From: Cryomorphaceae bacterium BACL11 MAG-121001-bin54
Lineage (GTDB): Bacteria; Bacteroidota; Bacteroidia; Flavobacteriales; BACL11
DNA: 64,000 nucleotides
Reading direction: 5' to 3'
Assembly: GCA_905182255.1 (NCBI GenBank)
Contig: CAJJAH010000002.1
Coordinates: 12,069 to 76,068 of the forward strand
The position numbers and the translations under genes are program-made. The notes below the pieces were generated by a model that did not search any database, had not been told where the DNA came from, and saw only the letters and a list, made by a program, of their open reading frames with translations. Positions 1-12,035 of this stretch are shown here, one piece after another; the first letter of the stretch is position 1; every line of letters starts with the position of its first letter.

Positions 1-1
1 G

Positions 2-433
2 CCATTACTTTTTACAACTTGTAAGAAAGAAGACGAAGAGCCAACATCTATATCAATTCTAGGAAGTTGGGAAAGTATTGAATGGAAAGCCTTATATAGT
101 AGTGGATATTGGACTTCTTTCCCTAACGGACAAAAAGTAATAACATATAATAGCAGTGAAACAGAAGACTTTTGGTTAGATTTAATCTTTTTATCAGATG
201 GTGATGTTTTGGGGATTGATGAAGATGGTTTCTCAATGCCTGGATCTTGGGCTAAAAATGGAAACACTTTAATAATAGATGACAATAACTTTACTATTAC
301 TAATTTAAGTGCTTCATCTTTAACAGTGTATACAACTGAAGCAGATACAAGTACTCCCTATTGGAATCCAATGAATGATACAATATATTTTACTGAACGA
401 ACTGATACAATTAAATGGATAAGAAACAATTAA
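2..433 (+). CDS. Lipocalin-like outer-membrane lipoprotein, 5'-truncated by the window edge
   Basis: The frame of ORF 209..433 is open back to position 2: PLLFTTC-KKEDEEPTSISILGSWES... This shows a lipobox Cys, a K/D/E-rich surface-export-like motif and a lipocalin-like 'ILGSW' motif. Confidence 0.7.
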   Translation, partial: PLLFTTCKKEDEEPTSISILGSWESIEWKALYSSGYWTSFPNGQKVITYNSSETEDFWLDLIFLSDGDVLGIDEDGFSMPGSWAKNGNTLIIDDNNFTITNLSASSLTVYTTEADTSTPYWNPMNDTIYFTERTDTIKWIRNN

Positions 434-475
434 AACAATAGATTAACAATAAACTAAGATTATGAAAAAACTACT
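431..475 (+). repeat. Shared stop-spacer-start module, copy 1
   Basis: taaaacaatagattaacaat (431-450) matches 4852-4871 at 19/20 nt. It is followed by atgaaaaaactact, as at 818 and 4870. Confidence 0.65.
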
Positions 476-752
476 TTACTTAACAATTTTGATATTTAGC
501 CTAACTTCTTGTGTTGATGAAGAAGAGAAGTGCATAGATCAAATAAAATCTTGTATTATTAACAAAGGAGGTGAACTTTGTATTTCTATAGCCATTAATG
601 AATATTGTGGTACAAATTTTGATCCTCATTTTAATGAATGGTGGTATGAAATGCAAGATTGGGCAAAAGAATCTGATTTAAATAAGAAAAAACTAATTAA
701 GCTTGCAAATAAAATAGAGAAAGAAGCAGAAAAACAGTTAGCAAGGAGTTAG
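462..752 (+). CDS. Hypothetical lipoprotein
   Basis: MKKLLYLTILIFSLTSC lipobox followed by acidic VDEEE; no recognisable domain. Confidence 0.7.
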   Translation: MKKLLYLTILIFSLTSCVDEEEKCIDQIKSCIINKGGELCISIAINEYCGTNFDPHFNEWWYEMQDWAKESDLNKKKLIKLANKIEKEAEKQLARS

Positions 753-817
753 ATGAAATTGCTCGCATTTGGATAAAAAAAGAGATTTGTAGAGTTAAAA
801 AATAGATTAATAAACAA

Positions 818-1582
818 ATGAAAAAACTACTAATTATATTACTTTACTTACCTATGATTGGGTTTGGGCAAAACGTAAACATACCTGACGCTAACTTTAA
901 AGCATATTTAGTTGGAGAGCCTTCTATTAATACTAATGGAGATTCTGAGATACAAGTAAGCGAGGCTGCTGCTTTTAATGACACTATTGATTGCGATAAT
1001 AAAAATATTTCTGATTTAACAGGAATTGAATCCTTTACTTTACTTAATGCTCTTAGTTGCAATAATAACAACCTCACTAATCTAGACTTATCTAATAATA
1101 TAGAATTAATTCTTATATATTGCGCGTACAATCAAATTAGCTCTATTAATGTAAGTAATAATGAAGATTTAATTATGTTAGGTGCTGAAAATAATTTACT
1201 TAGCTCCATTGATGTCAGTAATAATACCAATCTAGTCAATTTGATATGTTATTCTAATCAATTACTAAGTGCCGATGTGAGGAATGGAAACAATCAGAAT
1301 GCAGAATGGTATATGTTTAGCGATAATCCAAATTTAGAATGTATTAATGTAGATAATCCAACTTACTCTACTAATAATTGGTTAGTTGCTTTTGGAATGA
1401 TTGATTCATCAATGTATTTTAGTAGTAACTGTAATAACTCAACATTAATTCAAGAACAAACTAAAAACAAAAAACTACTTAAAATTACAGACCTATTAGG
1501 AAGAGAAACAAAACAAATCAACCAACCACTCTTTTACATCTACAATGATAGAACAGTAGAGAAAAGAATAGTTGTAGAATAA
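818..1582 (+). CDS. Secreted leucine-rich-repeat protein with a short T9SS type-A-like C-terminal sorting domain
   Basis: Signal peptide ending FGQ; IPDANFK...N.NGD.EIQVSEA N-cap; LRRs of the LxxLxCxxNxLxxLDLSNN type; tail KLLKITDLLGRET...YNDRTVEKRIVVE. Confidence 0.85.
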   Translation: MKKLLIILLYLPMIGFGQNVNIPDANFKAYLVGEPSINTNGDSEIQVSEAAAFNDTIDCDNKNISDLTGIESFTLLNALSCNNNNLTNLDLSNNIELILIYCAYNQISSINVSNNEDLIMLGAENNLLSSIDVSNNTNLVNLICYSNQLLSADVRNGNNQNAEWYMFSDNPNLECINVDNPTYSTNNWLVAFGMIDSSMYFSSNCNNSTLIQEQTKNKKLLKITDLLGRETKQINQPLFYIYNDRTVEKRIVVE

Positions 1583-1583
1583 A
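1538..1583 (+). repeat. Direct repeat, left copy (3' end of the sorting-signal coding sequence)
   Basis: 42/46 nt identical to 4810-4855, with an exact 29-nt core atgatagaacagtagagaaaagaatagtt (1545-1573 = 4817-4845). Confidence 0.9.
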
Positions 1584-1784
1584 TAATTAAATTTACTTAC
1601 TTTAAAACAATTAGCTAACTTAAATCCCTGTAAATTTTATAAATATATTTAAAGATTTAGAGAGTTATAAAATTGATCTTAAGTGTGAGTGTTTAAGTGT
1701 ATTGCTTGAAGTAGAAGTTGAGGTGTTGTTTACGATATTTAGTTTTTGAACTCTATAAATCAGGCCTATTATCATTAAGTTTAA

Positions 1785-1792
1785 TATATTTG
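1785..1792 (+). promoter_or_regulatory. Bacteroidota housekeeping-sigma -7 element upstream of the SPFH operon
   Basis: TATATTTG matches the TAnnTTTG consensus, about 165 nt upstream of ATG 1957. Confidence 0.55.
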
Positions 1793-1956
1793 CAAAGCAG
1801 GCTATAAATAACTTTATACTCTTGTTAAAAGATGTCCTAATAGGTGCACCTTTAAGAATGTAAAATATAAGTTACTGATAACAAGCAATATACTGGATAG
1901 GTTCATTTCCTGATTCGTATGCTAAAAAATTTAAGTTTTAAAAAACAACTATTATT

Positions 1957-2694
1957 ATGTATAATGAAAAATTTGAAAAATTAATTGAATTAGCCTTAGT
2001 TGATGGTGAAGTTACTGATAAAGAGAAAAATATTCTTTTAAGAAAAGCTGAAGAGAATGGAATTGACCTTGATGAATTTGAAATGGTGCTTGATGCAAAA
2101 TTGTATGAAAAACAGCAAAGTATTAAACAAACAAAACCAGAAGATTCTAATACTGTAAAAACTGATAAATTTGGTGATGTAAAGAAATGTCCTGCATGTG
2201 GTTCAATGATTCAATCTTTTCAAATTAAATGTATTGATTGTGATCATGAATTTTCAAATATTGAGGCAAATACTTCTATTCAAAAGCTTTCTAAATTATT
2301 ATACGAAGCAGAGAGCCAGAGAGATGATAAAGTTACAGCAAGTAGTGTAATTGGTGGGTTATTTAAAAACTCTCTTGGGGGTGGTGCACTATCCAATGCT
2401 TTAGGTGGAGAATCCAAGACTGATAAAAGGAAAAAAGAAATTATTTCTACATTTTCTGTTCCTAACACAAAAGCTGATATTCTAGATTTTTTATCTTTAG
2501 CTTTTCCAAAATCAAAAAGTAAAGGAAATTTTTTTACAAAAAATAATCCAGAATATATAGAACATAATGAGTTTGTATCAGTATGGAAAACAAAGTCTGA
2601 ACAAATAATTATGAAAGCAAGATTTTCAATGAAAGATGATAAAAAAACGCTGGATGAAATTAACTATTATGCTAATCAATTAAAAATATCATAA
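1957..2694 (+). CDS. Protein with a TerB-like N-terminal helical domain and a zinc ribbon
   Basis: LIELALVDGEVTDKEKNILLRKAEENGI is a TerB-like DG..T..E motif; CPACG...CIDC forms a Zn ribbon; the C-terminal domain is helical; no signal peptide. Confidence 0.7.
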   Translation: MYNEKFEKLIELALVDGEVTDKEKNILLRKAEENGIDLDEFEMVLDAKLYEKQQSIKQTKPEDSNTVKTDKFGDVKKCPACGSMIQSFQIKCIDCDHEFSNIEANTSIQKLSKLLYEAESQRDDKVTASSVIGGLFKNSLGGGALSNALGGESKTDKRKKEIISTFSVPNTKADILDFLSLAFPKSKSKGNFFTKNNPEYIEHNEFVSVWKTKSEQIIMKARFSMKDDKKTLDEINYYANQLKIS

Positions 2695-2696
2695 AT

Positions 2697-4052
2697 ATGG
2701 GGTTATTTGGAAAAAAATCAGAAGGTGGATTAATGGATGTTATACGTTGTGATGAACAAGAATATCTTGTTTGGAAATGGCGACCATCTGGAGAAGCAGA
2801 TTTTACAAAAAAGGAAAATGCGATTCGTTATGGTAGTAATCTAAGGATCAAAGATGGAGAGCTTGCTGTTTTTGTATATAAGAAGGATGAAGGTGAAAAT
2901 CAAGATTTTATTATTGGACCTCATGATCAATCATTAAAAACTGCAAACTTCCCTGTTTTAGCAAGTATTGTTGGACTTGCTTTTGGTGGAAAATCCCCTT
3001 TTCAAGCAGAAATATATTTTATAAATCTTTCAGGTAATATTCAAATAAGATTCGGTATTCCGTATTTTGATGTTTTTGATCCTCGATTTATGGACTTTGC
3101 TGTACCTATGGCTGCTAGAGGAACTCTTACATTTAATATTACAGATTATAAAGGTTTTATTAAATTAAATCGCTTAATAAATTTTGAATTGGATAACTTT
3201 AAAAAGCAAATTAAGGATGCTTTAACGAAATATATTAAAGGTGTTGTTACAAATATACCTTCAGATAATGGTATGCCTGTTTTACAGATGGAAAGAAAGA
3301 TGCTAGAAGTTAATGATTTGGTTTCTAAATATTTAGGTCCTCGTTTAGAAGCAGATTTTGGTATTAATATGAAGGCATTAGATATTTCACATTTAGAATG
3401 TGATAAGGATGCAAAGGGATATGCTGAATTAAGAAAAGTTACTTCAGAACAAGTTACTAAAACTATTGCTGGACAGACAGACATTAATATTAAAAATCTT
3501 AAGGATACTCAAGAAATTAATGCAAAAAATATGAATGAAACTTTACGAATTCAAAGAGAAGAAGCACAAAGAGCTCAGAAACTACAGACTGAATCTCAAA
3601 ATATTTCTGTTCATCAGTTGAATCAACAGACAGAAGTAGCAAAAACTGCAGCTGAAAGTATGGGTAAAATGGGTTCTGGTGGCGGAGATGGTTCTGGTGG
3701 AGGTGGCGGTGGCGGAATGATGGATCCTGGATCAATGATGGCAAGTATGGCTATGGGTGGAGCAGTTGGCTCTGGAATGGCTGGTGCTGTTGGTGGGATG
3801 ATGCAAGGCATGAATCAAGATAAACAAACTCCTCCTCCTCCTCCTCAAGTTCAGTATAATATTTCTGTTGGTGGACAAAAGAGTGGCCCTTTTGGTTGGG
3901 ATATATTAAAGGAAATGGTACAAAGCAGTCAAATCACAAAAGACACATATGTTTGGAAACAAGGAATGGAAAAATGGGAGTTTGCAAAAGATGTTGAGGA
4001 ATTATCTTCACTATTTGGATCAATAGCACCTCCACCACCACCATTACCTTAA
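2697..4052 (+). CDS. SPFH (Band-7, YdjI-like) protein with coiled coil, Gly/Met-rich linker, poly-Pro and C-terminal GYF_2 (DUF4339) domain
   Basis: MGLF...DVIRCDE..LVWKW; G.HDQSLKTANFPVL..IVG..FGGKSPFQAEIYFIN (YdjI-type SPFH); C-terminal Y.I...GQKSGPF...TYVWKQGMEKW flanked by PPPPP runs. Confidence 0.85.
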   Translation: MGLFGKKSEGGLMDVIRCDEQEYLVWKWRPSGEADFTKKENAIRYGSNLRIKDGELAVFVYKKDEGENQDFIIGPHDQSLKTANFPVLASIVGLAFGGKSPFQAEIYFINLSGNIQIRFGIPYFDVFDPRFMDFAVPMAARGTLTFNITDYKGFIKLNRLINFELDNFKKQIKDALTKYIKGVVTNIPSDNGMPVLQMERKMLEVNDLVSKYLGPRLEADFGINMKALDISHLECDKDAKGYAELRKVTSEQVTKTIAGQTDINIKNLKDTQEINAKNMNETLRIQREEAQRAQKLQTESQNISVHQLNQQTEVAKTAAESMGKMGSGGGDGSGGGGGGGMMDPGSMMASMAMGGAVGSGMAGAVGGMMQGMNQDKQTPPPPPQVQYNISVGGQKSGPFGWDILKEMVQSSQITKDTYVWKQGMEKWEFAKDVEELSSLFGSIAPPPPPLP

Positions 4053-4075
4053 ATATTAACTAAAATAAATATATT

Positions 4076-4432
4076 ATGAATGATAGTAATTTTTTTTCAA
4101 TGGATAGGTTAGTCGAATTTGGTATGGGTTTAACTGTTGCTCAGCAAATGATTAAAACAATGAATGAATCTATGACAACTATGCATATACCTGGTGCAAT
4201 GAATTCTATGGATAAGCCTCAGCAAATTTTTTTTTATGTAATAATTGAAGATAAGCAAGCAGGTCCTTTTTCTGAAAATGAATTAGCTAGATTAATTTCA
4301 GAAAAAAAAGTTGTTAAAGAAACTTATGTTTGGTTGCCTAGTTTACCAAGTTGGAAAATGGCAGAACAGATTCCTGAAGTTTTAAAATTAGTTGCTCTAG
4401 CTCCACCTCCTTTTAATTTAAATAAATTATGA
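4076..4432 (+). CDS. Small GYF_2 (DUF4339) domain protein
   Basis: FFYVIIEDKQAGPFS..EL......TYVWLPSLPSW motif; Met-rich N-terminal helix; APPPF tail. Confidence 0.8.
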   Translation: MNDSNFFSMDRLVEFGMGLTVAQQMIKTMNESMTTMHIPGAMNSMDKPQQIFFYVIIEDKQAGPFSENELARLISEKKVVKETYVWLPSLPSWKMAEQIPEVLKLVALAPPPFNLNKL

Positions 4433-4773
4433 AATTAAATTTTGTAAATCTTTTTATAGCTCTTTTAATATCTACCTTATTGTCTTGCGGTTTGTTTAGC
4501 TTTAATAAATCAGAAAATGATATGTTATTAACTTTAGGAGGTTTTCTGTGCTTTCTATTAACATTAGTTATTTCAATGGGAGTTGATTTTCAAAGGCTAA
4601 GAACTACAACAAATATTCGTGTTGTTTCTATTTTTTTCTTTTTAATTACCTTAGTAAGTAATTTAATTTTTGCAAATTTTATTTTTAATGTTCCTCTTTA
4701 TATTATTATAAATGGAGTACTTATACTTATTTATATTTTTATTGCAAAATCTATTTACACCTCAAAACAATAA
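4429..4773 (+). CDS. Four-TM membrane protein, translationally coupled to the GYF_2 gene
   Basis: Four hydrophobic stretches in 114 aa; ATGA start/stop overlap at 4429-4432. Confidence 0.75.
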   Translation: MKLNFVNLFIALLISTLLSCGLFSFNKSENDMLLTLGGFLCFLLTLVISMGVDFQRLRTTTNIRVVSIFFFLITLVSNLIFANFIFNVPLYIIINGVLILIYIFIAKSIYTSKQ

Positions 4774-4854
4774 ATAATAAAAACAAAACCCAATATTCCA
4801 TTCATTGAAATCTATGATGATAGAACAGTAGAGAAAAGAATAGTTATTGAATAA
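4774..4854 (+). pseudogene. Orphan C-terminal sorting-signal remnant (no start codon); contains the right direct-repeat copy 4810-4855
   Basis: Reads IIKTKPNIPFIEIYDDRTVEKRIVIE* directly after stop 4773; homologous to the C-terminus of 818..1582. Confidence 0.8.
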
Positions 4855-4869
4855 AACAAAAGATTAACA

Positions 4870-4932
4870 ATGAAAAAACTACTAATTATATTACTTTGTT
4901 TAACTATGATTGGGCTTGAGTTAGAATATTAA
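4870..4932 (+). pseudogene. Orphan signal-peptide remnant, MKKLLIILLCLTMIGLELEY*
   Basis: The first 45 nt are 42/45 identical to the start of 818..1582; the frame stops after 20 codons. Confidence 0.8.
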
Positions 4933-4936
4933 GATT

Positions 4937-5659
4937 ATGTATAAAAAAATAATCTCTTTTATTTTAGTAATAATTTTTATTTATCTGTTATTTTATTTTA
5001 TTCCAATTTATAAAGGCAATTCTAAAGCGATTTTTAATAATTATCAAAAATTATGGGCTCATAGAGTATTGGATGTTAATGATGCTAATAATAAGTTTGT
5101 AAATTTTAAAGGAATAGAGATTGATGTTTTTTTTGAAATAGAAAAAAATGTTTTTGATGTAAGACATCATGGTAAATATAGAGGCAATACTCTATTAAAT
5201 TTTCTAAGGAATATAAATGATAAAGAATTATTTATTTGGATTGATTTAAAAAATCTAAACAATAAAAATGTTCTAGCTATACGTGATAGATTAAGTGTAA
5301 TAATTGATAGTGGTGTAAATAAAGAACATCTATTAATTGAATCTAAGAATATAGAATTGTTAGAGGTATTACAAAATGAAGGGTTTTATGTAAGTTATTG
5401 GTTACCAAATTTTAATCTTATCAAGAGTACCTATGAAGTTTTTCAAGTGAAAAATGATTTAATAAAATATAAACCAAATGCGATATCATGTTCTTATCAT
5501 AATGTTGATTTTTACTCTAGGAAATTCCCAAAATATAATTTACATTGTTGGACAAACGGCCTAGAAGAAGGAAGAGATAACTTGAAAGTTTTTAAAATTA
5601 GCTTAAGGGATAATGTTAAGGTTATCTTAGTAGATTTTGAAAATAATTTTATACAATAA
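4937..5659 (+). CDS. Membrane-anchored GDPD/PLC-like phosphodiesterase-fold protein
   Basis: N-terminal TM helix; KLWAHRV, GIEIDV and FDVRHH motifs typical of PLC-like phosphodiesterase TIM barrels. Confidence 0.55.
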   Translation: MYKKIISFILVIIFIYLLFYFIPIYKGNSKAIFNNYQKLWAHRVLDVNDANNKFVNFKGIEIDVFFEIEKNVFDVRHHGKYRGNTLLNFLRNINDKELFIWIDLKNLNNKNVLAIRDRLSVIIDSGVNKEHLLIESKNIELLEVLQNEGFYVSYWLPNFNLIKSTYEVFQVKNDLIKYKPNAISCSYHNVDFYSRKFPKYNLHCWTNGLEEGRDNLKVFKISLRDNVKVILVDFENNFIQ

Positions 5660-5694
5660 ATTATTTAGTCATTATAAAATCTTAGCATAAATTT

Positions 5695-9122: not shown

Positions 9123-10963
9123 AAACTAGTTTTTTACTATTTATTTTTTCTATCCTATTGTTTTCCTGTCAAACTGGAGAGGTAAGTAATTATACTGAAT
9201 ATTTAAATCACAATGATACTGTTAAGTATGTTGGTAAACAGGAGTGCAGGGCTTGTCATGCTGAAATCTATGATTCTTATATGCAAACAGGAATGGGGAA
9301 ATCTTTTCACTTCGCAACAAAAGAACATTCGGCTTTAACCGGTACTGAAATGCCAATTATTAATGATACTATTAAAAATTTATCTTACAAACCATTCTGG
9401 AAAAATGATAGTCTATATTTGAAAGAATTTCGAATAAAAGGCAATGATACTACTCATCAACTCATCAAAAAAGTAAATTATAAAATAGGAAGTGGACAAC
9501 ATACAAATTCTCACTTATTTGAAATTAATGGCTATTTACATCAAATGCCATATACTTATTATACCCAAAATAAAATTGCAGATTTACCTCCAGGATTTGA
9601 AAATGGAAATAATACACGTTTTTCACGTGAAATTGGTTTAGAGTGTATAAGTTGCCATAATTCCTACCCTGATCATGTTGATGGCTCACTTAACAAATAT
9701 GATGCTATACCTAGCGGAATAGATTGTGAAAGATGTCATGGGCCAGGCGAGATACATGTAAAACAAAAGTTGGCGGGTAATATTATTGATACTTCGAAGT
9801 ACATAGATTATTCAATTGTAAATCCTAAAAGATTACCATTGGATTTACAGTTTGATGTCTGTCAAAGATGTCATTTACAAGGTACTGCAGTATTGGCTAA
9901 TGGAAAAACATTTACTGATTTTAAACCAGGTAAGCATTTAAATGATGTGATGGATGTCTATCTGCCAAAGTATGAGAATGAAGAGTCATTCATAATGGCT
10001 TCTCATGTAGAAAGATTAAAGCAAAGTGCTTGTTTTAAAACAGCTGAAATAACTTGTATTACATGCCATGATCCACATAATAGTATAAATAATGTATCCA
10101 CAGCCTATTTTGATAACAAATGTATGCAATGTCATAGTGATTGTAAAGACGAGCAAACTCAAAATTGCACTTCTTGCCACATGTCAACGTCAACAACCAC
10201 TGACATACAGCATGTAAGTATTTCTGACCATAAAATATCAATTCCTTCAACTATTAAAAAGAAAAAAGGAAAATTCTTAGGATTGTTTGCCATTAATAAT
10301 GATTTTCCAACTAATTTATCTAAAGCAAAAGCTTATTTAAAGCGTTTTGAAAGTTTTGAGCAAAACCCAATCTACTTGGATAGTGCATTAGTTTATCTTA
10401 ATCTAACAACAATTGACTTCCCTGCTTATATTCAATATTTTTATCTTAAGAATGATGCTAAAGGTCTAGTGAATTTTGTAATGAGTAATACTATTGATAG
10501 TCTAATGTATAAAAAGAGTGACTTGGCATTGGCTTATAGTAGAATGGCTGAAATGTTCGCGTTAAAAAATTTGACATTGGATGCTAAAAGTTATTATGAT
10601 AAGTCAGTTTATCTAATGCCGTTTGTAATAGACTACAAGTTAAAGCTTGGAGCTTTTCTAATTGATAATAATCAAATAATGGCAGCTAAGGTAATTTTTG
10701 AAACTGCATTAGCACTTAATCCAACTCATAAAGAAATACACCTTAATCTAGGATATATATATATATTACAGCAAAATTTTATATTAGCAGATTTGTATTT
10801 GAAACAGGCTATTGCTTTAGATCCTGATTATATATTAGCATATGAAAATTTAGTTCTTTGTGCGCAAATTCAAAATAATTTGATAAATGTAAAAGCGTAT
10901 TTAAATAAAATTTTAGAAATTGTCCCAGATTACAATTCTAGTTTAATTTTAGAAAACCTTTAA
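9119..10963 (+). CDS. Multiheme c-type cytochrome lipoprotein with C-terminal TPR repeats
   Basis: Lipobox LLFSC; seven CxxCH motifs (CRACH, CISCH, CERCH, CQRCH, CITCH, CMQCH, CTSCH); TPR-like ALALNP..., AIALDPDY. Confidence 0.85.
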   Translation: MKTSFLLFIFSILLFSCQTGEVSNYTEYLNHNDTVKYVGKQECRACHAEIYDSYMQTGMGKSFHFATKEHSALTGTEMPIINDTIKNLSYKPFWKNDSLYLKEFRIKGNDTTHQLIKKVNYKIGSGQHTNSHLFEINGYLHQMPYTYYTQNKIADLPPGFENGNNTRFSREIGLECISCHNSYPDHVDGSLNKYDAIPSGIDCERCHGPGEIHVKQKLAGNIIDTSKYIDYSIVNPKRLPLDLQFDVCQRCHLQGTAVLANGKTFTDFKPGKHLNDVMDVYLPKYENEESFIMASHVERLKQSACFKTAEITCITCHDPHNSINNVSTAYFDNKCMQCHSDCKDEQTQNCTSCHMSTSTTTDIQHVSISDHKISIPSTIKKKKGKFLGLFAINNDFPTNLSKAKAYLKRFESFEQNPIYLDSALVYLNLTTIDFPAYIQYFYLKNDAKGLVNFVMSNTIDSLMYKKSDLALAYSRMAEMFALKNLTLDAKSYYDKSVYLMPFVIDYKLKLGAFLIDNNQIMAAKVIFETALALNPTHKEIHLNLGYIYILQQNFILADLYLKQAIALDPDYILAYENLVLCAQIQNNLINVKAYLNKILEIVPDYNSSLILENL

Positions 10964-10964
10964 A

Positions 10965-12035
10965 TTGAAAAGACAAAGAAAATTTAAAAAAAAATCATCA
11001 TTCCGTAAATTCATAACTGCTTTTTTTGTTCTAGTAATAATTGGTTGTATTGGAATGGTTTATGAATTATATTCAAGAGTATATCAACCCAATATAGTGC
11101 TAAATGATAATTCCGAAAAATATATTTATATTCCAAGTAATTCAGAGTTTCCAGATGTTGTAAAAGTACTATTAGAAAATGGATTATTGATAAATGCTAA
11201 TTCTTTCGAATGGTTAGCAAAACAAAAAAAGTATGATACTAATATTAAATCAGGTAGATATAGAATTAATAGGGCATTAAATAATAATGATTTAATTAAT
11301 TTATTGCGTTCAGGCAAACAAACACCAATAAAAGTTACTTTTAATAATTTAAGAAATATAGAACAATTGGCGGGTAGGATTGCTAGTCAAATTGAGGCTG
11401 ACTCTTTATCAATTATTAATTATATTACTGATTCCATATTCTTAGATAAATTAAAACTCAACACTGAAAATGTTGCTTGCTTATTTATTCCAAATACTTA
11501 TGAGTTTTATTGGAATACATCTGTAGAGGGTTTTGTGAATAGAATGATAAAAGAGTATTCAAATTTCTGGAATTCTTCTCGAAGTAAAAAGGCAACTAAG
11601 ATTAAACTTAATTATTATCAGGTTGCTGTCTTGGCTTCAATTGTAGAAAAAGAACAAAGTATAAAAAGAGATGAGCGCCCTGAGATAGCAGGATTATACC
11701 TCAATAGGTTGAAAAAACAAATGAAGTTAGAATCAGATCCAACTCTTATTTTTGCAATAGGTGATTTTACAATAAAGAGAGTTTTGAATAAAGACAAAAA
11801 AGTTAAATCTCCTTATAATACTTATAAAAATAAAGGTTTACCTCCAGGTCCTATCTGTATTCCATCTATTAATGCAATCGACGCTGTTTTAAATGCAAGT
11901 GAACATAAGTATATTTTTATGTGTGCCAAAGAAGATTTTACTGGTTACCATAATTTTGCTAAAACCTATTCAAAACATTTAATAAATGCGCGTAAATATC
12001 AAAAGGCATTAAATAAGCGTAAAATAATGCGTTAA
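10965..12035 (+). CDS. mltG: Endolytic transglycosylase MltG (YceG)
   Basis: N-terminal TM; LASIVEKE; L.SDPT; SPYNTYKNKGLPPGPI. TTG start. Confidence 0.95.
   Translation: MKRQRKFKKKSSFRKFITAFFVLVIIGCIGMVYELYSRVYQPNIVLNDNSEKYIYIPSNSEFPDVVKVLLENGLLINANSFEWLAKQKKYDTNIKSGRYRINRALNNNDLINLLRSGKQTPIKVTFNNLRNIEQLAGRIASQIEADSLSIINYITDSIFLDKLKLNTENVACLFIPNTYEFYWNTSVEGFVNRMIKEYSNFWNSSRSKKATKIKLNYYQVAVLASIVEKEQSIKRDERPEIAGLYLNRLKKQMKLESDPTLIFAIGDFTIKRVLNKDKKVKSPYNTYKNKGLPPGPICIPSINAIDAVLNASEHKYIFMCAKEDFTGYHNFAKTYSKHLINARKYQKALNKRKIMR

Follow-up and report, generated by a model that had tools for sequence, protein, structure and literature searches.

Integron cassette arrays consist of tandem, co-oriented, promoterless genes with a recurring short element between them, and their content varies among relatives; the integrases act on attC, which is a folded site. 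In Borrelia, the erp/elp/mlp genes encode unrelated mature lipoproteins with common upstream homology boxes and leader peptides, are carried on mobile (prophage) replicons and are shuffled by recombination.

For three further systems we draw on parts of the published reports. In the vpma genes of Mycoplasma agalactiae and the vsp genes of M. bovis, the 5' untranslated region and the signal-peptide part are conserved and the rest differs; recombination takes place at sites in the interval from -72 to the start codon, next to the locus is a gene for a tyrosine recombinase, and Xer1-dependent inversions move a single promoter between oppositely oriented genes, resulting in phase variation (PMC2268961). 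The potempin/KLIKK-peptidase operons of Tannerella forsythia encode small lipoproteins with 4–14% identity and strikingly similar or identical signal peptides; these genes adjoin type IX cargo, and further, 'orphan' ORFs for small lipoproteins bearing that signal peptide are present at other places in the genome (PMC9890683). In Porphyromonas gingivalis, domain rearrangement and allelic exchange have been described for T9SS surface proteins (PMC5266723).

Organization of the island

The window, i.e. the whole 64,000-nt stretch analysed, belongs to contig CAJJAH010000002.1 (C2) of the metagenome-assembled genome (MAG) under study (G000), from the BACL11 group of Flavobacteriales. Its positions 1-5690 form the right end of a variable island extending upstream (C2:1-17.7 kb; limits are approximate), and 431-4939 is part of this hypervariable, horizontally exchanged island of secreted-protein genes. 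The island genes are short and co-oriented, and encode unrelated secreted proteins and lipoproteins. They are joined by a module of 55–80 nt composed of TAA, an A-rich spacer, ATG and the first 12–18 signal-peptide codons (the head); the spacer core is 16 nt, with or without a 12-nt extension, a 22–30-nt leader is sometimes present 5' of the spacer, and a subset of genes has a common C-terminal tail of about 40 aa. The features in window coordinates are as follows.

2..433, + strand: last 143 codons of a 154-aa lipoprotein gene (ORF lists)
431..461, + strand: junction, long form; stop codon TAA, 16-nt spacer core and 12-nt extension up to ATG
462..752, + strand: gene for a 96-aa Cys-rich small lipoprotein; the head is a module variant with lipobox
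797..817, + strand: spacer variant 5' of the LRR gene (D5; 88% to the reference copy)
818..1582, + strand: gene for a 254-aa LRR protein; module head at 818-871 (MKKLL...GFGQ type), with an nhmmer module match
1583..1956, + strand: non-coding island element; 1609-1910 is 88% identical to a stretch of genome G010
1957..4773, + strand: foreign four-gene SPFH/GYF operon (Pfam)
4777..4854, + strand: tail stump of a lost gene; last 25 tail codons and stop (81% to the LRR tail)
4852..4869, + strand: junction, short form; TAA and 15-nt spacer
4870..4932, + strand: orphan head; ATG, 19 more signal-peptide codons and TAA (nhmmer E=2.9e-14)
4937..5659, + strand: 240-aa accessory gene with an N-terminal hydrophobic segment

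The 154-aa lipoprotein gene, which has a module head and encodes a lipobox Cys, begins at C2:12037, 32 nt outside the left edge of the window; the 96-aa lipoprotein gene has an nhmmer module match at C2:12498-12578. Searches of Pfam and NCBIfam gave no family match for the 154-aa, 96-aa and 240-aa proteins. The label 'LRR' given in the initial annotation agrees with Pfam/NCBIfam matches, but all of these are below the curated cut-offs; the tail of this protein is encoded at about 1460-1582. In G010, more copies of the central part of the 1583..1956 element are found directly 5' of leader, spacer and cassette. Within this element, TATATTTG at 1785-1792 matches the Bacteroidota -7 promoter consensus and constitutes a putative promoter; the consensus TTTG/TANNTTTG is taken from the relevant part of a published study (PMC6847099). 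Upstream of the 240-aa accessory gene, related DNA shows four different contexts.

The further cassettes sought upstream of the window are present on C2. The junction is multi-copy (21 nhmmer matches in G000, a MAG that is 53% complete), and its copies are clustered in two arrays, at sites where gene order is not conserved. Independent assemblies show the same arrangement (L075).

Shared DNA of the module

The start module ATGAAAAAACTACT is found at 462, 818 and 4870, i.e. three matches against 0 expected, and none of 100 shuffled sequences had any. Between 817-866 and 4869-4918, 46/50 nucleotides are identical (92%); the spacers at 431-453 and 4852-4874 are 91% identical, with a third copy at 797-813 (families D5 and D8), and the end modules at 1507-1596 and 4779-4868 agree at 74% of positions, and fully in a core at about 1545-1575 (D1). 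The start context TAAGATTATG is present at 455 and 4930 as had been described, but its frequency is not above chance, 14/100 shuffles giving at least two matches. The DNA identity exceeds what amino-acid constraint and codon bias explain: the heads at 818 and 4870 share all 11 same-residue codons (4.8 expected), and the tails at 1538 and 4810 share 11/12 (6.1 expected from codon bias). The mature parts are unrelated; BLASTP among the 13 array proteins of C2 gave only 2/78 pairs at E<=0.01, one being a true family (C2:12037 and its paralogue in the second array, C2:182290, 50% identity) and the other a local match of 33 residues only.

The view that the tails are sorting signals was not supported, the T9SS family cut-off being reached by 0/4 tails tested. 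The best score against the T9SS models was obtained for one tail (E=0.16, 12 bits; cut-off, 23 bits), and hhalign gave 55% probability for the LRR tail against canonical tails; the secretion route of the tailed proteins is a presumed one.

A model (R1) was built from an alignment (A1) of 27 junctions, i.e. 431..461 and 26 others. It matches all 24 family genomes, with 4–40 matches each; genomes of 16 other families have 0–11 weaker matches each (at least one in 14/16), with best E values of 5e-8 to about 4e-3. The exact 27-mer junction (short form, as at 4852..4869) occurs in 14/24 family genomes from 7 genera and in 0/16 of the others, and the reversed 27-mer used as control had 0 matches.

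Synonymous-site identity is above expectation also for the GFGQ-type heads of G000, which share 132/189 same-residue codons (70% against 46% expected). Minor codons dominate 80 heads selected at the DNA level from 15 genomes (CTA 59/66, ATA 54/57, TGC 40/46 and GGG 31/33). When 15 ORFs were picked by protein pattern alone, CTA was found at Leu4 in 8 and at Leu5 in 6; its share among Leu codons genome-wide is 12%.

Mosaic exchange, stumps and a foreign operon

Pieces of the island are 89–95% identical to other species for which core DNA is only 73–87% identical. C2:11360-11786 is 93.7% identical to G007 (core DNA, 73–77%), C2:11738-12013 is 94.9% identical to G010 (core mostly 86–87%), C2:7073-9258 is 88.6% identical to G015 (core 75–82%), and C2:9388-10364 is 90% identical to G014 and G004, the adjacent core locus having 77% in the same search. 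In the alignments, identity starts about 20 nt 5' of a gene's ATG or at the ATG, and ends within the next gene's head. We examined 8 inter-genome blocks (>=90% identity, >=200 nt) at loci chosen for holding modules, and found 6/16 ends within 60 nt of a module ATG against 0.68 expected, a count reached in 0/2000 randomisations. Block ends thus fall at the modules more often than chance, in line with the proposal of the initial annotation; the other 10/16 lie away from them, and a block shared by G015 and G001 (97.3%, 1547 nt) instead overlaps terminator repeats at each of its G015 ends. Among the genomes compared, all from different species, no clean gain or loss of DNA had both of its breakpoints in modules. 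Two G000 contigs sharing 10.4 kb at 99.78% diverge in a terminator-like palindromic repeat and not in a head or tail, a point that could be an assembly branch. In four homologous between-species gene pairs, heads are 78–98% identical, the last 120 nt 83–98% and middles 58–91%, a pattern that purifying selection on the ends would also give.

The segment 4774-4932, treated as a junction in the initial annotation, has turned out to be no working junction but a decayed remnant (4777-4932) composed of a 25-codon tail stump, a spacer and a 20-codon orphan head. The tail stump abuts the stop of the operon's last gene, and it recurs in an independent metagenome contig with 96.5% identity over 1.4 kb. 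The orphan head is the best module match in G000, and a contig of 87% identity has a diverged orphan head 5' of the homologous downstream gene. Such stumps recur: of 81 heads in the loci examined, 12 are followed by fewer than 40 codons, another 5 have no ATG at the start position, and an intact 676-aa LRR gene in G015 corresponds to a frameshifted 108-nt head fragment at C2:9151 in G000. A derived AGA (Arg) codon is common to the G000 LRR tail and the stump tail, GGA (Gly) being found at this position in the same stump of the 96.5%-identical contig and in other tails; to judge from these codons, gene conversion is possible.

The LRR gene and the remnant are separated by 3.2 kb that hold no cassette but an SPFH/GYF operon of foreign origin (1957-4773), which has neither head nor tail. 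Its products are TerB/zinc-ribbon-like, SPFH (Band_7_1) plus GYF_2, GYF_2 and small membrane proteins (Pfam). The operon is kept together in other Bacteroidota, homology to it breaking off at about 1939-1956 and 4772-4785, and no module match was found in 80 such operon loci. In 15 same-genus genomes there is no close relative of the SPFH protein, the only match being a weak one in G004. Metatranscriptome contigs cover C2:14795-16473.

Possible mechanisms

Recombination at the modules is supported, and the proposal of the initial annotation is borne out in this part; none of the results demonstrates a site-specific, integron-like mechanism. Many genes and species carry almost the same module DNA, which could therefore provide homology that is portable: by homologous recombination or gene conversion within heads, spacers or tails, whole secreted-protein genes would be added, removed or replaced, each mature domain staying behind a working start and export signal. 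The exchange might occur within one genome or following transfer on integrative elements, a vehicle suggested by the integrases near modules in relatives (see below), and failed or later-eroded events would leave stumps such as 4777-4932. We regard this reading, with moderate confidence, as the most probable, with general (RecA-type) recombination presumably acting rather than a dedicated recombinase. The foreign operon, which entered without using a head or tail, counts against it.

Module conservation may be partly functional, because the junctions are unusually unstructured, like a good Bacteroidota translation-initiation region, and the spacer probably doubles as such a region. It is conceivable, if rather unlikely, that this is the main explanation, purifying selection at the nucleotide level maintaining the shared DNA as an expression signal (a 5'-UTR or intercistronic initiation region, together with the best start for a signal peptide) during ordinary duplication and divergence, with recombination incidental. 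The junction is rich in A, including positions -3 and -12, and folds no better than shuffles, which fits Flavobacterium johnsoniae, where, in the part of the study used here, initiation is raised by low structure and upstream adenines (PMC6847099); the exact maintenance of the spacer core across 7 genera and the stronger conservation of heads and tails than of middles in the four gene pairs agree with this too. However, T at -6 and C at -13 are unlike the reported positive determinants, and expression constraint does not predict that unrelated genes should share one particular minor codon at each of about 10 positions, nor does it predict the highly similar blocks between species with diverged core DNA, or block ends at modules; the sequence is moreover retained in dead stumps (15% of heads). 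Mis-assembly or chimeric binning of a low-quality MAG is very improbable. The MAG is incomplete and internally redundant, C2:1-10364 duplicating the terminal part of C3 at 99.78% and C1 ending with the sequence that opens C6, at 99.88%, and contigs of public runs break at modules; against this, the independent contig reproduces 1.4 kb across the stump, contigs from three further DNA runs of other studies tile the array at >=99%, and the module and array layout is present throughout the 24 family genomes, including one-contig and two-contig ones.

We consider it improbable, more so than expression constraint, that an array-adjacent tyrosine recombinase acts on a leader/spacer/head site, excising and integrating single genes, much as integron integrases do at attC or Xer1 at its sites in the vpma 5' regions. 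In five relatives, a module lies no farther than 5 kb from 8/15 non-Xer tyrosine integrases, against an expectation of 7.7% (binomial p about 5e-6, for genomes that are kin and not independent), and most of these integrases are upstream of, and co-oriented with, the array; the relatives' arrays come after integrase, HTH_17 and Rep-like genes. The leader (22–30 nt) and 16-nt core are near-identical after tails, a DUF5681 fragment and a Rep-like gene, orphan heads recur, and the modules within an array are all direct repeats, so that excision would be possible. On the other hand, the tyrosine recombinase sought upstream of the window is missing, with no integrase within about 100 kb of array 1 on C2 and the nearest PF00589 match (C2:117586) being Xer-like, 7/15 non-Xer integrases in the relatives have no nearby module, and most arrays have no nearby integrase. 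The integrases near arrays are Arm-type and diverse; seven compared are 21–58% identical, except one syntenic pair at 85%. There is no single dedicated enzyme. Neither an IntI-type integrase nor attI was identified. The junctions lack the hairpin or dyad potential of attC-like sites, folding no better than shuffles (z = 0.35, -0.27, 0.36, 0.72) and in one case clearly less well (z = 2.28; none of the 200 shuffles was worse). Block ends are found at several positions (-33 to +48), not at one crossover point.

Comparison with known systems

Like integrons, the island has tandem co-oriented promoterless genes, a short recurring element, variable content and, in some genomes, association with a tyrosine recombinase, whereas the element here is the 5' end of each gene, partly coding, and not a folded attC. 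With Borrelia erp/elp/mlp it shares upstream DNA and leader peptides common to unrelated mature lipoproteins; those belong to another phylum and vehicle and do not form tandem arrays with a 15-nt intercistronic spacer.

For the other systems, our comparison is with what the cited parts of the reports describe. The conserved 5' region and signal-peptide coding part with a divergent remainder resemble vpma/vsp (PMC2268961); unlike them, the BACL11 array genes are co-oriented, have no conserved dedicated recombinase and give no sign of switching, and their mature products represent unrelated folds, those of vpma/vsp being variants of a single type of lipoprotein. The P. gingivalis case is similar in that recombination among conserved parts of Bacteroidota secreted surface-protein genes yields diversity, but it concerns large adhesin/protease paralogues of one species, not small unrelated genes with a stop-spacer-start-signal module (PMC5266723). 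The potempins are likewise a Bacteroidota case of dissimilar lipoproteins with a shared signal peptide, described at the protein level for a few operons of one pathogen; the shared spacer, the array, the family-wide DNA repeat and the between-species exchange found here are not among the features reported in that account (PMC9890683).

Layout of the arrays

The genome under study (G000) is a MAG of 1.04 Mb in 7 contigs, 53% complete and with approximately 30% G+C, and the window corresponds to C2:12069-76068 in it. The repeated unit, hereafter the module, consists of a TAA, an A-rich spacer, an ATG and the first 12–18 codons of a signal peptide (the head); a 22–30-nt leader sometimes precedes the spacer, and the tail is a C-terminal stretch of ~40 aa. 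The ORFs of contig C2 to the left of the window have revealed that the window array is the right-hand portion of a longer co-oriented array, and the further cassettes that the initial annotation proposed to look for upstream are present there. The module opens each of the five close-packed genes in C2:11382-13650, and its strand is uniform, i.e., all + in array 1 (C2:7958-16989) and all − in array 2.

Features of the arrays and their surroundings (C2, contig coordinates; w, window coordinates)
C2:7182-7955, protein with canonical Por_Secre_tail, 50–53 bits on T9SS tail models
C2:7979-9127, gene with CAP domain and short tail
C2:9151, 21-codon orphan head (a leftover gene start), followed by a patatin gene and a RibD_C gene
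C2:10903-11342, block of multi-copy non-coding elements
C2:11382-13650, five close-packed genes (119, 90, 154, 96 and 254 aa), the last three being w2-433, w462-752 and w818-1582
w1583-1956, non-coding stretch, 88% identical to a stretch of the relative G010
w1957-4773, four-gene operon: TerB/zinc-ribbon-like, SPFH (Band_7_1) + GYF_2, GYF_2, small membrane protein
w4777-4854, last 25 codons of a tail
w4852-4869, TAA and 15-nt spacer
w4870-4932, 20-codon head ending in TAA
w4937-5659, accessory gene
w5692 rightwards, core genome, conserved in every searched genus member
C2:179.3-183 kb, minus strand, array 2, with the same leader, spacers and heads and two more orphan heads
C2:27-106, 921-1004, 1741-1820, 9290-9377 and 10305-10385, further copies of repeats of the C2:10903-11342 block (terminator-like palindrome, multi-copy elements)

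In G000, the assembly does not reach the left end of the island, and no tRNA gene that might serve as its anchor was found in C2:1-20000. G000 holds duplicate DNA (C2:1-10364 versus C3:126181-115819, 99.78%; C1:374760-416977 versus C6:1-42217, 99.88%), which represents either co-assembled strains or unresolved assembly branches; the point where C2 and C3 diverge falls within a copy of the terminator-like repeat. Related metagenome contigs (loci L075-L080) show the 240-aa gene of w4937-5659 behind four different upstream neighbourhoods and ahead of two or more downstream ones, and these several contexts mark it as a shuffled accessory gene itself.

Junctions shared at the DNA level

All repeats named in the initial annotation are present in the sequence. 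The start module ATGAAAAAACTACT is found at w462, 818 and 4870 (three matches, 0 expected, and any match in 0 of 100 shuffles); the heads at w817-866 and 4869-4918 are identical at 46 of 50 nt, the spacers at w431-453 and 4852-4874 agree at 91% and recur once more at 797-813, and the end modules at w1507-1596 and 4779-4868 are 74% identical with an identical core. The start context TAAGATTATG, noted at w455 and 4930, is at chance level, since at least two matches appear in 14 of 100 shuffles. The TATATTTG element is a candidate transcript start, as is the leader. When the expectation is taken from genome codon usage, the same-residue sites share 11 of 11 codons in the heads (4.8 expected) and 11 of 12 in the tails (6.1 expected), and on account of this excess of identical codons the similarity is one of DNA and not of protein only. 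The mature parts are unrelated, as had been claimed: when 13 array proteins were compared in all 78 combinations, two matches reached E<=0.01, and just one of these is a full-length family. By inspection, the short spacer has stop codons in all three frames; this carries no weight, because such stops are expected fairly often in DNA of 30% G+C.

Copies of the junction beyond the window, which the initial annotation proposed to count, are abundant: the profile model R1, built on the basis of sequence alone from 27 junctions (alignment A1), matches 24 of 24 family genomes, 4–40 times each, and gives only weaker matches outside the family. An exact 27-mer (TAA, spacer, ATG and two Lys codons) is present in 15 of 41 searched genomes, i.e., in 14 of 24 other family genomes (7 genera) and in 0 of 16 genomes of other families, with 0 for the reversed control. 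In fully read junctions, an identical spacer and head start lies downstream of very different genes, and one spacer plus the first 36 nt of the head precede both SPase-I-type (…GFGQ) and lipoprotein-type (…C) signal peptides. Minor codons are fixed across 80 heads of 15 genomes, a count biased in that heads were picked by DNA similarity.

Minor codons fixed in heads (position and codon; heads; genome share for the residue)
Leu4 CTA; 59/66; 12%
Ile7 ATA; 54/57; 30%
Cys10 TGC; 40/46; 24%
Gly17 GGG; 31/33; 11%

Among 15 G000 ORFs picked by a protein pattern (start M[KR]KLL), CTA is used at Leu4 in 8 and at Leu5 in 6. All 56 MKK-type heads of G000 have a small excess only (3998 of 6960 same-residue codons identical, 57% versus 50% expected), and the excess of codon identity belongs to array genes. 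A Sec signal peptide has a basic n-region and a hydrophobic core, followed by ...GFG/Q, A/Q or a lipobox Cys. The putative signal peptides of the 73 heads that are intact were sorted by inspection into 39 SPI-like ones, 20 with a lipobox and 14 others; for the Q-rule of Bacteroidota SPase I signal peptides, we refer to PMC5837995 and PMC10653852.

Gene remnants and a foreign operon

The junction at w4774-4932, which had been put forward as a recombination substrate, turned out to be dead and not a working one: it consists of a tail end, a spacer and a 20-codon head. At C2:9151, only 108 nt are left of a 676-aa LRR gene, with a 1-nt deletion, and in the relative G015 a spacer and then the intact 676-aa LRR gene come after the CAP-tail homologue; from this comparison, orphan heads are the residue after loss of a gene body. 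Fewer than 40 codons follow the head in 12 of 81 heads of the loci examined, and 5 more heads lack ATG. The window stump (the leftover gene end and start) recurs in the independent metagenome contig L075, 96.5% identical over 1415 nt. An 87%-identical contig has a diverged orphan head with GTG for ATG, still upstream of a homologue of the w4937 gene, and two 92.5%-identical contigs have another cassette at the position of the stump, where the homology stops at the ATG.

The operon at w1957-4773 is foreign to the array. A search of 15 same-genus genomes with its SPFH protein returned no close relative and one weak match of 23% identity; 147 relatives of the protein are scattered across Bacteroidota and beyond. 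At the best 80 of these 147 loci, the DNA homology extends from ~w1939-1956 to 4772-4785, that is, exactly the four genes, and no module was found there. The operon has been kept as a unit at ~66–79% DNA identity in very different Bacteroidota (72–85% protein identity for the closest SPFH homologues) and is also found in single MAGs of Puniceicoccales, Oxalobacteraceae and Ignavibacteria; this patchy spread suggests horizontal transfer. PADLOC gave nothing meaningful for the SPFH operon and the w4937 gene. Metatranscriptome contigs cover C2:14795-16473, a cover to be read as presence only, the uncovered parts carrying no evidence.

Since tails flank the operon, a Campbell-type entry via tail-tail recombination was considered and rejected: the homology runs from the first gene to the last stop codon, and the 375 nt upstream are an island element that elsewhere precedes leader and cassette. 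In G010, more copies of the central part of w1583-1956 are located directly before leader, spacer and cassette. The limits of the operon homology and the upstream island element agree better with the loss of most of an earlier tailed gene to the incoming DNA, and the operon seems to have replaced the leader, head and body of that gene while sparing its last 25 codons.

Exchange between species

Pieces of the island match different genomes best, with identities well above those of the core.

Best matches of island pieces (piece; relative and identity; core identity)
C2:11360-11786; G007, 93.7%; 73–77%
C2:11738-12013; G010, 94.9%; mostly 86–87%
C2:7073-9258; G015, 88.6%; 75–82%
C2:9388-10364; G014 and G004, 90%; 77%, adjacent core locus only

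In the alignments of C2:11360-11786 and 11738-12013, identity starts at the ATG or ~20 nt before it, spans gene and spacer, and stops 30–48 nt into the next head, beyond which the mature parts are unrelated. Eight inter-genome blocks with at least 90% identity over at least 200 nt have been found, and a module ATG is no more than 60 nt away from 6 of their 16 ends, where 0.68 are expected and 6 were reached in 0 of 2000 randomisations; this count leaves out blocks made mostly of multi-copy elements and concerns few blocks, kin genomes and loci chosen for their modules. In one block, both of the ends in G015 instead overlap terminator-like repeats. The initial annotation proposed to test whether breakpoints between strains fall inside the repeats; the block ends compared here are between different species and may reflect such breakpoints. 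Within G000, the tails of the LRR gene and of the stump both have AGA at a site where the stump of L075 and the other 12 listed G000 tails have a Gly codon or another residue, which hints at gene conversion inside G000.

Contig joints from public runs, for instance 9124->11340 and, from two studies, 11366->12037, were considered as deletions of cassettes between spacers and discounted: their shorter side is only 23–27 nt of a repeated module, so that the joints may derive from other loci or organisms. Within the phenylacetate (paa) gene cluster, a 679-aa gene of G010 carries a head of the module type and the short tail (L047, G010:C2 9440-11660), and the counterpart in G008 is a small lipoprotein gene (L046, G008:C1 8540-8800), of which only the part downstream of the signal peptide is left in G010. 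A gene has been inserted at this site, one of the breakpoints falling at a signal peptide.

Integrases and other repeats

The initial annotation also proposed a search for a tyrosine recombinase upstream of the window. PF00589 gives 5 matches in G000; the nearest to array 1 (C2:117586) is Xer-like and 100 kb off. The integrases of the relatives are of the Arm-DNA-bind_5 / Phage_int_SAM_5 type, and a module is found within 5 kb of 8 of 15 non-Xer integrases in five relatives (7.7% expected). Apart from the G010/G004 pair, the 7 compared integrases adjoining arrays have 21–58% mutual identity; in G010 and G004, an 85%-identical integrase adjoins the same conserved 403-aa flanking gene and the cargo differs. 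In G002 and G001, the arrays start directly after integrase, HTH_17 and REP_ORF2-G2P-like genes. The relatives thereby show the features of cargo on an integrative mobile element or additive genomic island, which has an integrase together with excisionase-like and replication-like genes at one end, variable cargo and conserved chromosomal flanks. G000 keeps mobile-element fragments only, namely a DUF5681 fragment and a leader at C2:11141-11342, its left island end being unassembled.

Between integrase/HTH_17 and the first cassette, ORFs of 131 aa (L086:4077-4472 and L084:10487-10882) and 129 aa (L093:10664-11053) have been found; the former two, on which Pfam was run, just reach the REP_ORF2-G2P model of a rolling-circle replication protein, and in L086 the leader overlaps the end of the Rep-like ORF. 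The 131-aa protein has no relative in a viral contig collection. Module-headed genes also occur ~800 nt from Xer-type recombinase genes at G010:C1:767623 and G015:C2:640798, which looks like conserved synteny rather than an island.

The islands further hold the terminator-like palindrome, after which comes a conserved GGTGGGCC...TTCGAA stretch. They also contain two multi-copy elements (~160–220 nt), one being the 5' part of a DUF5681 gene. All these repeats are many per genome across the genus, with 85–96% identity, and often flank arrays. The leader is up to 100% identical between species. An Rfam search of C2:1-20000 gave no match that reached its gathering score; most of the weaker ones were "leader" matches located on the terminator-like palindrome.

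The short tail and secretion

A type A C-terminal sorting domain of the T9SS is defined by a match to curated models over ~70–80 residues. The initial annotation regarded the shared end module as a sorting signal, and the curated models do not support this identification: none of the 4 FYIYDDGTVEK-type tails tested, nor the 1 stump, reaches the cut-off of TIGR04183/PF18962, the best score being E=0.16 and 12 bits against a cut-off of 23 bits, which the neighbouring C2:7182-7955 passes. The type A, B and C models do not recognize the short tail, a ~40-aa C-terminal motif family that ends in ...LFYIYDDGTVEKKIIIE and is carried by 12 G000 proteins (e.g., C2:7979-9127, C2:12886-13650 and C2:180524-182287). 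The hhalign comparison of the 12 short tails with 13 canonical G000 tails gave a probability of 55% and E=1.2e-4 over 39 columns, in the C-terminal half only. The short tail is possibly either a sorting domain in truncated form or a separate kind of signal. SprA_N (PF14349), of the T9SS translocon, occurs in G008 and G015, the two complete genomes of the genus, and a search of the 53%-complete G000 did not find it; T9SS sorting of the tailed proteins is plausible.

Mechanism and comparison with known systems

We consider it fairly probable that the module acts as portable homology. Whole genes would be added, deleted and swapped in frame when heads, spacers or tails undergo homologous recombination or gene conversion, integrative elements would carry arrays between species, and erosion would leave the stumps. 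Selection at the nucleotide level for expression would also maintain shared DNA, and it agrees with junctions without structure, with A at -3 and -12 (PMC6847099), and with ends that are more conserved than middles in 4 homologous pairs; we regard it as unlikely to be the explanation. That all this is an artefact appears very improbable.

A site-specific cassette system, to which the association of integrases with arrays and the invariance of leader and spacer would point, seems doubtful indeed, as the adjacent integrases are diverse, no integrase is near array 1 in G000, attC-like folding is absent and the block ends vary. With just as little probability, the family of these small-genome marine Bacteroidota would possess a cassette system undescribed so far, with a recombination site inside the stop-spacer-start-signal-peptide junction and capture and excision catalysed by the Arm-type tyrosine integrases that adjoin many arrays; each captured gene would then gain a start site and an export signal automatically, because the site is embedded in the junction, and the system would be comparable in function to integrons and serve the secretome alone.

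If the module is the unit by which genes of secreted proteins are exchanged, this would explain how streamlined marine bacteria with genomes of ~1–2 Mb keep a fast-turning, strain-specific surface and secretome; any incoming mature domain would gain expression and export immediately on recombining at a head. The 27-mer or R1 also offers a simple tag for locating such variable islands in metagenomes, in which assemblies are prone to breaking.

An integron consists of IntI, attI and attC cassettes, in which attC, an imperfect palindrome folding as single-stranded DNA, ends each cassette. The outcome here resembles integrons, as the initial annotation had proposed, but two defining features, an integron-type integrase adjoining the array and attC folding, were looked for and not found; for five junction stretches folded as DNA, z was 0.35, -0.27, 2.28, 0.36 and 0.72 against shuffles. 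The full-text literature searched, which has most subscription journals outside its range, contains no description of the module in Flavobacteria-like bacteria. Multigene families with common 5' ends are known in Mycoplasma and Borrelia pathogens.

The nearest analogue is the vpma/vsp system of Mycoplasma (PMC2268961), in which 5' UTR and signal peptide are conserved, recombination sites lie at -1 to -72 and the gene of the Xer1 recombinase is adjacent; oppositely oriented genes there have one promoter, and the adjacent dedicated recombinase brings about inversions. The module has the conserved 5' UTR and signal-peptide region in common with it (alignment A1 and codon analysis), whereas the modules here are co-oriented within each array and G000 has no adjacent recombinase. 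Within Bacteroidota, the nearest case is that of the Tannerella potempins, which PMC9890683 describes as unrelated small lipoproteins with near-identical signal peptides that adjoin T9SS cargo and have orphan copies elsewhere.
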